A model generated the notes under the pieces. That model saw only the letters and a program-made list of their open reading frames with translations, did not search any database and was not told the origin of the DNA. A DNA stretch of 21,738 nt from a virus (Duplodnaviria; Heunggongvirae; Uroviricota; Caudoviricetes). Shown here piece by piece: positions 9,927-21,738 of the stretch. The first letter of the stretch is position 1; each line of letters opens with the position of its first letter. Location of the stretch: the IMG/VR virus record IMGVR_UViG_2537561977_000011; one strand, 5' to 3'. The translations under genes were made by a program, and so were the position numbers.

Positions 9927-10346
9927 GCTTCATCTCCTCGTTAATGCGGACGGCCTCGGCTTCCAGTTCTGTAAACTGCGAAACAGCCACCCGTCGCAGC
10001 TCCAGTGGATTCAGTTTCCAGAACCAGGCAACATTGTAGAGTCGTTTCCGGAGGTGCTTCCCGTCTCCGACTGGGTAAAAAAACGCAGGATCTGCATGCT
10101 GGTCTTAAAAATATCCAGTTTTGCCATCTGCGCCGCCGATGAACGCGGGATCCCCGCCAGCAACGGGATATATTTCAGTGCCACCTGGCTGTCCAGTTTA
10201 ATACTGCCTTCACCGGAAATAATGAAAGGAAAACCCAGCGCCTCGATTTCGTCATACGTGGGCTCGCGCAACTCCAGCACATGCAGCATTTCGTTATGCG
10301 CTGTCACCGGTTTTTTTAAAACTATTTCTGTAACGTTCATTGCCAT
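9919..10346 (-). CDS. tail assembly chaperone GT-like fusion produced by programmed -1 frameshift at the slippery heptamer T-TTT-TTT (10083..10077)
   Basis: The -1 frame is open for 58 codons from the slippery site (YPVGDGKHLRKRLYNVAWFWKLNPLELRRVAVSQFTELEAEAVRINEEMKHG) and stops at TGA 9921..9919, overlapping the tape-measure ATG. This is the conserved arrangement of tail chaperone genes. Confidence 0.6.
10011..10346 (-). CDS. tail assembly chaperone (G-like, zero-frame product)
   Basis: 111-aa ORF from ATG 10346 (GAGGGAGGG 8 nt upstream) between tube and tape measure; contains a T7 slippery run 29 codons before its stop. The ORF-track start at 10445 is rejected. Confidence 0.7.
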   Translation of the reverse strand: MAMNVTEIVLKKPVTAHNEMLHVLELREPTYDEIEALGFPFIISGEGSIKLDSQVALKYIPLLAGIPRSSAAQMAKLDIFKTSMQILRFFTQSETGSTSGNDSTMLPGSGN

Positions 10347-10700
10347 TACTGATACCCTCCCTCTTCGCCTGGAATTCAAGATCTGCCGTGCCTTCTTCGG
10401 CATTATGATTAGCCTCTCCGTGCAGCCATGCCGCCGAAAGCACATACACCATGCCGTTTGCCAGCTCAGCGGTAATCGTCATCTGGTCTGAGGTGGTAAT
10501 TTTGTCGACCGGAAAGTTTTTGGGCACTTTAAACGTGCCCTTAACGTAAGGTGACCGCCAGGTCTCCTTGTAATCCACATCCCCTGCCATGCCGACGATG
10601 TCATCCCGGACATTGGTGTTCATCGGCACTTCAATGCCACCTGTCAGCGATAACTGCTGACCATCCACTTTAAAAAACAGGTTCCGGCGATCTTTGCCAT
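10294..10700 (-). CDS. tail tube protein; reading frame inconsistent with its likely ATG start (apparent 1-nt indel in an A6/T6 run at 10672..10677), 3' end uncertain
   Basis: ATG 10700..10698 with AGGAG upstream overlaps the sheath stop (TAATG), but that frame stops after 18 codons; the long ORF (10294..10770 in the track) is in another frame and would otherwise overlap the sheath gene by 70 nt. Position between sheath and chaperone identifies it as the tube gene. Confidence 0.6.
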
Positions 10701-12196
10701 TATGCTGACTCCTCTGAATACTGAAGACGGAACTGGTTAACCACCGCAAAGACACGTAACTGATTAACATAATCCGGCGGGAACAGCGTATTCAGTCGGT
10801 TCGGGTTATCTGCATCACGCTCAACTATCAGATACTGTTTAAACAGATCGTAATTTTCCACAATACCGGCACGCTCCATCTGACGATATGTCGCCAGAAG
10901 TTCCCCTTTGATAACGGCAGGAGTGACAATCGCCTGCCCCGGACCAAAACGGGTACCATCATTTGCCAGCTTGTGACGTCCGTACTTGCTTGTGATGACC
11001 GATTTCAGTTTGCGAAGAACATATGCACTGGTATGCAGAGTTTCACTGTCCAGATAGCTGTTGTCTGCCACGCCATACGCATTCTTTTTGTAGGTGGTTA
11101 CGGAACGCTGGATCTGCAACGTGCCGCCTTCCACATAAGCCGTCGCCACGCCGTGAGATAAAAGGGTCTGCTGCTCTGTCATGATGAATCGCTTACCTTT
11201 CGGTGCCGGAAGCATCCCCACCAGCTCCCCCGTCTGTGTCGGACGGGCAGGATCATTCCGGATAAATACCGCTTCACGGGCAAGGCGACTGGCAACCAGT
11301 TCATCGACAGGCGACTGGGTTTCTTTTTCGTAACCGGCAAGCGTGATATGTTGCTGATTATGCATATCTCCGGCACCAACCAGCTCTGACAGCGTTCCCA
11401 GTTTTGCGGTATAGACATGCCCGTATAACTGGCGCGCATAACTCCAGCGACCGCTGCTGTCATTCATTTCGGTCATCATCATATTGATGGAGGCGGCATC
11501 GTTGAACGGCAGACCGATAAAGTCGAATGCCTCATCGCCCATAGCAGCAACAGCGGCGGTAAGATCAGGCGCTCCGCTACCGGCAGCACCGACTTCCGTC
11601 ACCACCCGAAGCCCTGCTGGCAGAATCTCACCACCACCAGAACCATAATAATTCAGACAGACCGGTAACTCATTACCATACAGCCCCTTATGACGGGCAG
11701 TCAGCGTCACCACGCCTGCATCAGATGACGCCGTAAACGGCAGGGTGATAACCCCGTTTACCGCTTCCTTAATCGCGGTGGCAACCGCAGTGGCATCATC
11801 GCCATTCACCACAGGCACCTGTACACGGGAGCGCCCGACATACAGACTCAGGGTGCCGCTTTCCTCTGCTTCTCCGGCAACCGTCACCCTGACCGTCGCC
11901 GCCGCCCCTCTGGCTTCCGGTACTGCAATAACATACAGTTCACCGAAAGGATCTGTCTGACGGTAGACTTCCACCATACGCGCCAGCTGGCTCCCCGCCC
12001 CACAAATCTGGCGGGCATAATCTGCCGATGGCATCAGCACCAGGCTGTTAACCTCAATGGCTGCATCGTTGCTGGCATGCCCGATCAGTAATGCAGGCGC
12101 GCTGGTCACCGCTGTATTTGCCGCAGAATTGTTCATCTCGGCGTAGAACAACGGCACCAGCGTATTCGACGGAACAGTATTAAAACTTATCGTCAT
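10700..12196 (-). CDS. contractile tail sheath protein
   Basis: 498-aa ORF, ATG at 12196 overlapping the stop of the upstream small gene (ATGA); size and position immediately upstream of the tube gene typical of myovirus sheath proteins. Confidence 0.85.
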   Translation of the reverse strand: MTISFNTVPSNTLVPLFYAEMNNSAANTAVTSAPALLIGHASNDAAIEVNSLVLMPSADYARQICGAGSQLARMVEVYRQTDPFGELYVIAVPEARGAAATVRVTVAGEAEESGTLSLYVGRSRVQVPVVNGDDATAVATAIKEAVNGVITLPFTASSDAGVVTLTARHKGLYGNELPVCLNYYGSGGGEILPAGLRVVTEVGAAGSGAPDLTAAVAAMGDEAFDFIGLPFNDAASINMMMTEMNDSSGRWSYARQLYGHVYTAKLGTLSELVGAGDMHNQQHITLAGYEKETQSPVDELVASRLAREAVFIRNDPARPTQTGELVGMLPAPKGKRFIMTEQQTLLSHGVATAYVEGGTLQIQRSVTTYKKNAYGVADNSYLDSETLHTSAYVLRKLKSVITSKYGRHKLANDGTRFGPGQAIVTPAVIKGELLATYRQMERAGIVENYDLFKQYLIVERDADNPNRLNTLFPPDYVNQLRVFAVVNQFRLQYSEESA

Positions 12197-12354
12197 GATT
12201 TTTTAGCCTTATCCTGTTTAACACGTACCACATCACCCGCCGCTATACGGCGGAACCAGTAGCTGCTTTCTTCCACATTTCGCCCTTCGGAAGGCAAAAG
12301 GTCTCCACGGGCAGGGTCAGGAACCGACCGCCCTTTCAGGGGTTTCACAAACAT
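12193..12354 (-). CDS. small conserved tail-module protein (DUF2635-like, 53 aa); absent from the ORF track because it is under 60 aa
   Basis: ATG 12354; translation MFVKPLKGRSVPDPARGDLLPSEGRNVEESSYWFRRIAAGDVVRVKQDKAKKS; stop TGA overlaps the sheath ATG; fills the gap between the neck gene and the sheath gene. Confidence 0.5.
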   Translation of the reverse strand: MFVKPLKGRSVPDPARGDLLPSEGRNVEESSYWFRRIAAGDVVRVKQDKAKKS

Positions 12355-12363
12355 GAGGGACTC

Positions 12364-12927
12364 TTAATTCTGAGGGAAACGCATTTCCAGATGGTGCTCA
12401 ATGTCACCATCCGGGCCAGTACCAGGATCGATGTAATCCACATCAATACTCAGCAGGGATAAATCCGGCAGGGCATTCACGTCCTCTGCCTGTCGCGTGT
12501 CTTCTTCCGTGATTTCATACTTCGCCGTAAAATCAAACTGGTAATACAGTTCGTAACGGTTCAGATCCAGCAGGGTGCCACCGACATAAACAATCTCGCC
12601 CCCTTGCGGGTCCGGCATCCATCCAAGCAGGGCTTTCCAGAGTTCTCTCCGGACATCATGAACGGCGTCATAGGCTGCCCACTGCCCTTTTTCATCACGC
12701 TCATTGCTGAGCACCACAATCACGGAGAAGCCTTCAGTCAAATCCTGCCAGTAATCGGTCTGTGATTTTTGTTCCCCCGGCGCATCGTCAGAGGGAACCA
12801 CATAGGCAGCAGGCAGGCGAAGTTTTCCGGCATCAGGGATCGCCTTAAACTGCGCCGCGCCACCAACACGCTCCTCAAAACGCGGGCATCGCTCACGCAG
12901 CGCCGCAATTATCGTTGTCAGTTTCAT
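12364..12927 (-). CDS. virion structural protein of unknown family (neck / tail-terminator position)
   Basis: 187-aa ORF between the HK97 gp10-like gene and the sheath gene; start overlaps the upstream stop; function inferred from position only. Confidence 0.5.
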   Translation of the reverse strand: MKLTTIIAALRERCPRFEERVGGAAQFKAIPDAGKLRLPAAYVVPSDDAPGEQKSQTDYWQDLTEGFSVIVVLSNERDEKGQWAAYDAVHDVRRELWKALLGWMPDPQGGEIVYVGGTLLDLNRYELYYQFDFTAKYEITEEDTRQAEDVNALPDLSLLSIDVDYIDPGTGPDGDIEHHLEMRFPQN

Positions 12928-21109: not shown

Positions 21110-21170
21110 AGGAAGGGTTGGCGGGCGGTCCCGGACAGCCAGGGCTGCAGGGATTTGACCCGCCCCTCCC
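21110..21170. promoter_or_regulatory. candidate cos / terminase recognition region: GC-rich imperfect inverted repeat (GGCGGGCGGTC ... GACCCGCCCC) in the HNH-terS intergenic space
   Basis: Arms at 21120..21130 and 21157..21166 separated by about 26 bp; G-rich arms resemble lambdoid cohesive-end sequences; location matches where cos lies in HK97-like genomes. Confidence 0.35.
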
Positions 21171-21188
21171 TACAAGTGAGAATAATTA

Positions 21189-21539
21189 TCACCTGATTCG
21201 TTCGCGCGCTGTTTTCGCTTTATGGCAGGGCCAGCACAGACTCTGCAGGTTGCTGTCTGCGTCTGTTCCGCCATGCGCTTTCGGGATGATGTGGTCGACG
21301 GTTTTCGCCTCGCTCACCACACCGACACGCAGACACAACTGACACAGACCTTTATCGCGCTTCAGAATACGGGCACGAATCACCGTCCATTTTGAGCCAT
21401 AGCCACGCTGGTGGCGGCTCAGTCCGCGCTGGTGCTGCACCCAGCCTTCACCGCGATGCTTATCGCAGTAACCCGAACTGTCTGTGGTTGTACCTGCACA
21501 TCCACGCTTACGGCAGGCACGTGGGATTAGTGATGGCAT
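21189..21539 (-). CDS. HNH endonuclease (packaging-associated)
   Basis: 116-aa ORF; GAGG 7 nt upstream of ATG 21539; N-terminal Cys4 cluster (CRKRGC...CDKH) and C-terminal HNH motif DHIIPKAHGG...N...LCWPCH; directly upstream of terS. Confidence 0.85.
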   Translation of the reverse strand: MPSLIPRACRKRGCAGTTTDSSGYCDKHRGEGWVQHQRGLSRHQRGYGSKWTVIRARILKRDKGLCQLCLRVGVVSEAKTVDHIIPKAHGGTDADSNLQSLCWPCHKAKTARERIR

Positions 21540-21582
21540 AAATACCTCATACCCTGCGAAATGTTTACCACGATAAAAAGGC

Positions 21583-21738
21583 TACTTAATGCACTGAGTG
21601 CGGATATACTCCTGTGCCCCTTCCAGTTGCATCTGCATCGTCATCAGCCGCTCTCTGAGGGTGAAATAATCCCGTTCAGCGGTGTCTGCCAGTCGGGGGC
21701 TGGTTGCGATTATCCACGCCGGAGGCGGTGGTGGCTTC
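21583..21738 (-). CDS. Rz-like i-spanin, C-terminal part (5' end beyond window), with Rz1-like proline-rich coding overlapping in another frame
   Basis: Open frame to TAG 21585..21583 reads ...SPRLADTAERDYFTLRERLMTMQMQLEGAQEYIRTQCIK*, matching the lambda Rz C-terminus as recalled; the same frame upstream reads KPPPPPAWI (Rz1 hallmark) while a different frame reads EATTASGVDN (Rz-like), implying a frame switch near the C5 run around 21695. Edge coordinates may be off by 1. Confidence 0.55.

Follow-up and report, generated by a model that had tools for sequence, protein, structure and literature searches.

Several genes of a prophage in Escherichia coli LT-68 are interrupted by apparent single-base frameshifts in its tail, head, packaging and lysis modules, which raises the question of whether these lesions record the decay of the element or the errors of a draft sequence. 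The initial annotation had claimed that every disruption between positions 10294 and 21738 other than the IS insertions falls in a homopolymer run, and had left two explanations standing: systematic errors, with the prophage far more intact than it looks, or genuine slippage. The window, i.e. the whole stretch of 21,738 nucleotides that was analysed, is the entire contig ADUP01000036.1 of the LT-68 draft GCA_000188815.2, and its exact protein matches include EFZ58386.1 and EFZ58392.1, which are Escherichia coli LT-68 products. From sequence comparisons we conclude that the homopolymer-associated frameshifts of LT-68 are in all likelihood errors of the draft consensus rather than mutations, and assign this reading a probability of about 0.9. 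Coordinates below are those of the window, with features on the minus strand unless marked otherwise.

The element is a phiP27-like myovirus prophage by its synteny and high nucleotide identity, with packaging, head and contractile-tail modules, in agreement with the Pfam assignments. Enterobacteria phage phiP27, an Stx2e myovirus, is 93.8% identical at the nucleotide level over 67% of the region, and shares with it, as do SfII/SfI-like prophages, the gene order Rz, HNH, terS, terL, portal, HK97-type protease, capsid and connectors, followed by sheath, tube, tape measure and Mu-like baseplate. Unlike phiP27, the LT-68 copy is broken by two insertion sequences and a frameshift at the C-terminus of the tube, and is a defective prophage rather than a described phage. 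One of the insertions, in the prohead protease gene, is a 1292-bp ISEc60-like element of the IS4 family (15600..16891), with a DDE_Tnp_1 transposase, terminal inverted repeats, a 12-bp target duplication, GGGGATTTCCCC, at 15588-15599 and 16892-16903, and a corresponding empty site in one relative (L045); the annotation of the complete genome FDAARGOS_944 (L001) agrees with this assignment. The other is a 768-bp IS1 (888..1655, plus strand) in a tail protein gene, which is 99.6% identical to an annotated IS1 and is flanked by a 9-bp target duplication, CCTGTATCG, at 879-887 and 1656-1664. Both insertions are genuine.

Indels were called against FDAARGOS_944, which is 99.9% identical, and the intact relative RMDEC465 (L002), which is 96% identical. 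These alignments revealed six frame-breaking 1-bp indels in 10294-21738, with all remaining genes of this region intact. Three of the six lie within runs (tube A7>A6 at 10672, capsid T6>T5 at 14717 and terL T5>T4 at 20178), one adjoins a run (an extra C in terL at 20129, a single G ahead of a C5 run), and two are outside any run (loss of a G in the tube gene at 10370 and gain of a G in Rz at 21708). The universal claim of the initial annotation is thus false, although the lesions do fall in the genes that it named and the enrichment in runs is far above chance: runs of at least five bases make up 2.8% of the region and hold half of its indels (binomial P = 4e-4). Two further contractions lie outside this region, at 4940 (T8>T7) and 7967 (A7>A6). 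Across the whole window, runs of at least five bases contain five of the seven indels specific to LT-68 (P = 4e-7), the true lengths of the five contracted runs being 8, 7, 7, 6 and 5.

Comparison with other assemblies, which the initial annotation had proposed as a check, was carried out on clonemates, defined as contigs with the LT-68 IS junction; only contigs that run into an IS end were accepted. These are other isolates or stocks, each sequenced independently, and may not be LT-68 itself. The ISEc60 junction was found in none of the complete E. coli RefSeq genomes. Sequences matching the truncated protease of 166 aa (P0091) were considered as further carriers of the junction, and this was rejected, as four of them (L009-L011 and L013) carry a GAA>TAA nonsense mutation at the same codon. 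One clonemate, GCA_018229165.1 (L056), covers 1659-15592, from the IS1 junction, where its contig ends, to the ISEc60 junction, without a single substitution; it differs from LT-68 only at 4940, 7967, 10672 and 14717, in each case by a run contraction in LT-68. The Logan assembly of SRR13627092 (L052), which covers 5438-15624 and enters the ISEc60 end, displays the same pattern. On the other side of ISEc60, the Logan assembly of SRR13627069 (L050), which likewise enters the element, together with GCA_012768515.1 (L048) and GCA_012769395.1 (L049), covers 16870/16901-21738; over 4.87 kb these have no substitutions relative to LT-68 and differ from it only at 20129, 20178 and 21708. Three of the clonemate contigs (L050, L052 and L054) extend 22-25 nt into the ISEc60 ends. 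Taken together, LT-68 differs from clonemates sharing both IS junctions by no SNPs in 18,803 bp and by seven 1-bp indels, of which five are A/T-run contractions and the others the extra C in terL and the extra G in Rz. With indels assumed to make up as much as 20% of real mutations, an outcome consisting entirely of indels would still have a chance of only ~1e-5. We regard these changes as errors rather than mutations because clonal sister isolates possess identical DNA with intact genes. An internal control in the other direction is provided by two features that the clonemates do reproduce, namely the non-homopolymer loss of G at 10370 and an 18-bp duplication. The latter is a tandem duplication, 2 x AGAAGGTAA, at 7340..7357 in the gene for the DNA circularisation protein (469 versus 463 aa); it is common to L052, L056 and L057 and is genuine.

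The tail tube gene (PF10618; 10294..10700 in the LT-68 reading) combines both kinds of change. Its A6 run at 10672..10677, at about codon 10 and a T-run on the coding strand, is an artefactual contraction of A7, which is the length seen in L056 and L052 (with no SNPs) and in L001, L002 and L045-47. The second lesion, near the 3' end at 10369..10370, for which a G-run had been suspected, is instead the loss of a single G from GCC[G]TGG. It puts 25 other residues in place of the final 8 of the tube, yielding a product of 135 aa, the length called in L052 and L056, both of which have the deletion, and is absent from L001, L002 and L045-47. Being common to independently sequenced clonemates, this deletion is genuine. 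In the major capsid gene (PF05065; 14195..15420) the proposed A-run lesion was borne out: the T5 run at 14717..14721, an A-run on the coding strand, is an artefactual contraction of T6 that splits a protein of 408 aa into 267 and 141 aa. Clonemates L052, L054 and L056 have T6.

The gene for the large terminase subunit, terL (PF03354/PF20441; 18802..20559), encodes 585 aa once both of its sites are restored, as it does in L048, L049 and L050, and the repaired protein exactly matches a protein found on 996 contigs. Its predicted A-run lesion corresponds to the T4 run at 20178..20181, an A-run on the coding strand, which is T5 in L048, L049, L050 and all other relatives; the 140-aa product of the T4 form was found only in the LT-68 NCBI record and is absent from Logan assemblies. 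Its G-run lesion was placed near the correct tract, the C5 run, but the extra base precedes it: LT-68 has CGCCCCC at 20129..20135 in place of the true GCCCCC. This extra C is absent from L048-L050 and from L002, whereas the FDAARGOS_944 lineage has GCCCCCC instead. The two indels, separated by 49 nt, together restore the terL frame, but the shifted stretch contains a TGA at 20137-20139. The 3' part of the Rz lysis gene (PF03245; 21585..21738) runs off the contig end, and its lesion was wrongly attributed to a C-run, being an extra G at 21708 in TGC[G]ATT, 31 nt from that end and in no run. It is absent from L048-L051 (no SNPs) and from all other relatives, and its predicted frameshift product was not found in a collection of 15 billion proteins. 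Thus the clonemates have terL, capsid and Rz intact, and the comparison with them supports systematic error for all but one of the six lesions in 10294-21738.

Outside this region, the baseplate assembly gene has at its 3' end a T7 run (4940..4946), an artefactual form of the T8 run seen in L056, and its product is 351 aa in L052 and L056. The T7 allele is nevertheless genuine and fixed in an S. sonnei remnant of the prophage, finished genomes included, and the 358-aa product of LT-68 exactly matches an S. sonnei protein present on hundreds of contigs. That this match denotes a real T7 in LT-68 was rejected, given the T8 of L056 with no SNPs; S. sonnei has a genuine slippage allele there, and the LT-68 under-call happens to affect the same run. 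The remaining contraction, an A6 run at 7967..7972 (no strand assigned) in place of A7, is intergenic and artefactual.

A control for such errors is available from the same batch: the draft of S. sonnei 53G, ADUU01000034 (EFZ53457.1; of the LT-68 accession series), can be compared with the finished 53G sequence HE616528.1, their identity having been confirmed. In 21 kb the draft has nine one-base homopolymer deletions and one SNP relative to the finished sequence, and it under-calls six of ten A/T 7-mers, among them the run equivalent to that at 7967. This signature resembles 454 errors as described by Huse et al. 2007 (PMC2323236), i.e. length errors of one base that fall mostly in longer mononucleotide runs, and carry-forward insertions, in which a homopolymer base is inserted ahead of its run with at most two intervening bases. 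The change at 20129, from TCT-GCCCCC to TCT[C]GCCCCC, fits the latter definition (PMC2323236). The error profile of LT-68 is that of flow-based pyrosequencing, with A/T runs of 5-8 bases read one base short and one extra base placed before the terL C5 run, as in carry-forward. The stray G at 21708 is without a clear explanation in flow chemistry and is argued to be an error from its position; it may have arisen at a thinly covered contig end. Departing from the usual 454 picture, the five LT-68 run errors are all contractions and all in A/T runs, and neither the consensus nor an independent k-mer assembly, apparently of the same reads, has removed them. We infer 454 as the platform of LT-68 from this pattern of errors. 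The k-mer assembly in question is the Logan assembly of SRR040460, which is 100% identical to the window over 1922-15623 and has the LT-68 run lengths at 4940, 7967, 10672 and 14717; on account of this identity and the shared IS junction we take it to be LT-68's own data. As it repeats these lengths, the under-calls are likely to lie in most reads rather than being the product of one assembler. A literature search for LT-68, SRR040460, SRR354113, SRR060017 and the assembly accessions returned no platform information and no paper naming the runs or the assembly. SRR040460 would look no different if the changes were real mutations confined to the stock that was sequenced.

The principal rival is replication slippage in a decaying LT-68 prophage, perhaps in a mismatch-repair-deficient stock, which would make terL, capsid, tube and Rz true pseudogenes. 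Slippage is real in this prophage family: in the FDAARGOS_944 lineage at least 20 contigs, produced at several centres and on several platforms, have terL G5>G6, and the S. sonnei allele mentioned above is a baseplate T8>T7 change. Further decay in Shigella/EIEC-like sister lineages includes CGA>TGA at terL codon 419 and ISEc60 in the sheath and portal genes. Four LT-68 run lengths are also backed by SRR040460. However, heritability across independent assemblies, which holds for terL G6 and, in the LT-68 clone, for the deletion at 10370 (not a slippage site), does not extend to any LT-68 run change. Of the LT-68 lesions, the clonemates reproduce only the two IS insertions and the deletion at 10370 and none of the run changes, and no assembly other than that of LT-68 contains the frameshifted terL, tube or Rz product. 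Slippage also sits poorly with seven indels against no substitution over 18.8 kb, with an intergenic contraction that coincides with an error site of the 53G draft, with the identical signature in that control, where it is necessarily error, and with the change at 20129, which is not a slippage product. Hence genuine slippage, while evident in sister lineages, is very unlikely to account for LT-68.

A mixed case, in which the capsid A6>A5 change is a real polymorphism or recurrent hotspot and the other run changes are artefacts, derives from the exact 267-aa product in SRR354113 and SRR060017, which are of different lineages, and in two other NCBI assemblies, GCA_974493425.1 and GCA_974496755.1 (T5 records outside the LT-68 draft are L019, L020 and L023). 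We had considered this fragment as independent support for the frameshift and rejected it: in the three lineages T5 is confined to low-numbered SRA runs (SRR040460 and the two above), and each has an otherwise identical counterpart (0 mismatches) with T6; the clonemates with LT-68's IS junction have T6 as well. Throughout the prophage the two NCBI assemblies show many split genes, as would be expected of error-rich assemblies. The mixed case would require at least three independent identical events, or reversions, and is highly improbable; of similarly slight probability is its extension, that the capsid A6 run and perhaps other A/T runs are recurrent hotspots that inactivated the prophage independently in several Shigella/EIEC-like lineages, with the LT-68 contractions being real and its stock slippage-prone. 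Programmed ribosomal frameshifting or phase-variable expression could at most concern the A/T runs within coding regions and has an almost negligible probability: in relatives, which have the longer run, each protein comes from a single uninterrupted ORF rather than from two conserved frames, one affected run is intergenic, and the shifted stretch of terL contains a stop codon.

In the corrected sequence terL, the genes for portal, capsid and sheath, and the lysis genes are intact, as are the tube N-terminus and the baseplate assembly C-terminus. The genuine lesions of the LT-68 clone are ISEc60 in the prohead protease gene and IS1 in the tail gene, which disable the prophage, and the deletion at 10370, a tube C-terminal frameshift of putative effect. 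The suggestion that the prophage is far more intact than it looks therefore holds for the run-affected genes, but the element remains defective after correction because both insertions are real.

The consequences are practical rather than conceptual. In this prophage the draft of LT-68 has ~0.25-0.4 homopolymer under-calls per kb, as do, judging from the control, same-batch drafts such as that of S. sonnei 53G (ADUU), and such drafts therefore inflate pseudogene counts and distort calls of prophage intactness and inferences of 'gene decay'. Erroneous split proteins from this source are present in public databases, for example EFZ58386.1, EFZ58385.1, EFZ58392.1, EFZ58391.1 and EFZ58378.1.

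The window (ADUP01000036.1 of GCA_000188815.2) belongs to a phiP27-like myovirus prophage whose genes, all on the minus strand, encode Rz, HNH, TerS, TerL, portal, an HK97-type protease, capsid, connectors, sheath, tube, tape measure and a Mu-like baseplate; its split capsid and TerL products are matched exactly by EFZ58386.1 and EFZ58392.1 ('Escherichia coli LT-68'). The nearest complete genome is that of E. coli FDAARGOS_944 (99.9% identity), and RMDEC465 (96%) carries an intact relative. Base-by-base alignment to these two genomes identified six frame-breaking single-base indels within 10294-21738. 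Three are clean run contractions (written as true>LT-68 length), namely A7>A6 in the tube gene (10672), T6>T5 in the capsid gene (14717) and T5>T4 in terL (20178). Another in terL, an extra C at 20129 (CGCCCCC for GCCCCC), adjoins a C5 run, and two lie outside runs: a G lost near the 3' end of the tube gene (delG 10370; GCC[G]TGG) and an extra G in Rz at 21708 (TGC[G]ATT), 31 nt from the contig end. The claim of the initial annotation that every lesion other than the IS insertions maps to a homopolymer therefore stands as an association far beyond chance (P = 4e-4) but not as a rule, and its run assignments for the Rz lesion and the second tube lesion were wrong. Together, the two indels in terL restore the reading frame, but the 49-nt shifted stretch between them contains a TGA. 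Beyond this range, further contractions are seen at 4940 (T8>T7) and 7967 (A7>A6, intergenic).

Assembly error and real slippage had both been proposed as the source of these lesions. The first is favored by comparisons with clonemates and with a batch control, and we put the probability that the homopolymer lesions are an assembly artefact at about 0.9. Independent assemblies sharing the IS junctions of LT-68 were recovered through clone-specific window proteins, i.e. fragments of the IS-truncated protease, the circularisation protein of 469 aa and the terS allele. One of these, GCA_018229165.1, covers window 1659-15592, beginning right at the IS1 junction and ending right at that of ISEc60, with no substitutions and four differences (4940, 7967, 10672 and 14717), at each of which it is one base longer. 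The Logan assembly of SRA run SRR13627092 gives the same result across 5438-15624, extending 25 nt into the IS, and SRR22703082 has T6 at the capsid run. From the far side of ISEc60, the Logan assembly of SRR13627069, which extends 22 nt into the element, and the NCBI drafts GCA_012768515.1 and GCA_012769395.1 cover 16870/16901-21738 with no substitutions and three differences (20129, 20178 and 21708); all three have a 585-aa TerL and an intact Rz. In total, LT-68 differs from its clonemates by seven one-base indels and no SNPs over 18,803 bp, which argues against real slippage in LT-68. The comparison does capture real differences, since the clonemates carry both delG 10370 and an 18-bp duplication.

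The batch control used an S. sonnei remnant of the same prophage, for which the draft ADUU01000034 (EFZ53457.1, 'Shigella sonnei 53G'), from the accession series of LT-68, was compared with HE616528.1, the finished 53G genome (PMC10924462). In 21 kb, the draft shows one SNP and nine one-base deletions, all nine in homopolymers (A7>A6 and T7>T6 three times each, T6>T5 twice and G4>G3 once), and other finished S. sonnei genomes match HE616528. Under-calling affects six of the ten A/T 7-mers in this draft, and one of the six is the same run as that contracted in LT-68 at 7967. Drafts of LT-68's batch therefore carry the error signature of the window.

The under-calls would be systematic in the reads, since an independent k-mer assembly of apparent LT-68 reads gives four of the draft's run lengths. 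Real mutations private to the sequenced LT-68 stock would look identical in such an assembly; however, this alternative is very improbable in light of the zero-SNP background against the clonemates, the intergenic position of the contraction at 7967, the same signature in the 53G draft and a carry-forward signature at terL 20129. At this last site, the change from TCT-GCCCCC to TCT[C]GCCCCC is no slippage product and fits the published definition of a 454 carry-forward error, in which the inserted base matches that of a homopolymer ahead of it, separated from it by no more than two bases (Huse et al. 2007, PMC2323236). The same run bears a different and genuine lesion in the FDAARGOS_944 lineage (L001, which is FDAARGOS_944, and L028-L034), a G5>G6 frameshift (coding strand) at window 20129-20135 that is shared by at least 20 contigs sequenced at several centres. 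The extra G in Rz at 21708, which occurs in none of the other assemblies compared and whose predicted product has no match in the protein collection, has no clear chemical explanation. A genuine T8>T7 is seen at window 4940-4946 in the S. sonnei prophage remnant adjoining smpB (L036-L044), and its 358-aa product is identical to the erroneous product of LT-68; thus, a real allele and an error converge on one protein sequence.

The capsid T5 allele also appears in the Logan assemblies of SRR040460, SRR354113 and SRR060017. SRR040460 is almost certainly LT-68's own data, judging from its 100% identity to window 1922-15623 with the IS junction included. Without a single mismatch, SRR354113 matches the CP065611/UFYN01/DABDTG lineage over 5.25 kb and SRR060017 matches UDVF01000186 over 2.2 kb, and both counterparts have T6. 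Since T5 in these three lineages is limited to low-numbered SRA runs, along with GCA_974493425.1 and GCA_974496755.1, in which many genes are split, a repeated technical under-call is a far more parsimonious account than the same mutation arising independently three times. The megabase-scale sequences L019, L020, L021 and L023 (GCA_974493425.1, GCA_974496755.1 and GCA_047261975.1) have a related prophage split in protease, terL, capsid and terminator, and these look like further homopolymer-error-rich assemblies. Although of low biological interest, the artefact is a useful caution for users of drafts from LT-68's batch.

On the evidence of the clonemate sequences, the LT-68 clone is predicted to have intact terL, portal, capsid, sheath, baseplate assembly protein and Rz, along with an intact tube N-terminus. 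The prophage is nonetheless probably still defective, with its prohead protease interrupted by ISEc60, a tail gene interrupted by IS1 and the tube C-terminus altered by delG 10370. The ISEc60-like element occupies 15600-16891 (15588-16903 including the duplications), and its 12-bp target duplication, GGGGATTTCCCC, is nearly palindromic. IS1 occupies 888-1655 and is flanked by a duplication of 9 bp. Being common to the clonemates, delG 10370 (site 10369-10370) is a genuine, non-homopolymer change; the final 8 residues of the tube give way to a new 25-residue C-terminus, which overlaps the beginning of the gene for the tail assembly chaperone, and the tube of the clonemates is called as 135 aa. 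The 18-bp tandem duplication, two copies of AGAAGGTAA at 7340-7357, adds six residues to the DNA circularisation protein and is absent from FDAARGOS_944.

In sister lineages, decay is real and takes other forms: the terL G6 allele, a terL nonsense change and ISEc60 insertions in sheath and portal. The terL change, CGA>TGA at codon 419 (window 19303-19305), is real and occurs in three independent assemblies of the CP065611/UFYN01/DABDTG lineage (L045-L047). Near-identical prophage copies have ISEc60 at three different sites, in the protease of LT-68 and in the sheath and portal of FDAARGOS_944 (L001 12462-13756 and 18238-19532), indicating recent activity of this element. The related sequence L009 (~1480-1490), as well as L010, L011 and L013, has a GAA>TAA nonsense change at protease codon 167, yielding a 166-aa product exactly as in the IS-truncated protease of LT-68; hence, an exact protein match alone does not identify the IS junction.

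LT-68 is given as ETEC in one paper (PMC4038620), but Shigella boydii is the label on some of the protein records of its zero-SNP relatives, and IS1 and ISEc60 are abundant in the genome; its pathotype or lineage label may be worth a check. Window 1-887, encoding a distal tail protein and tail fibre assembly, is 92.8% identical to FDAARGOS_944 as against 99.9% for the remaining prophage, which suggests that the host-range module past IS1 was swapped by recombination.
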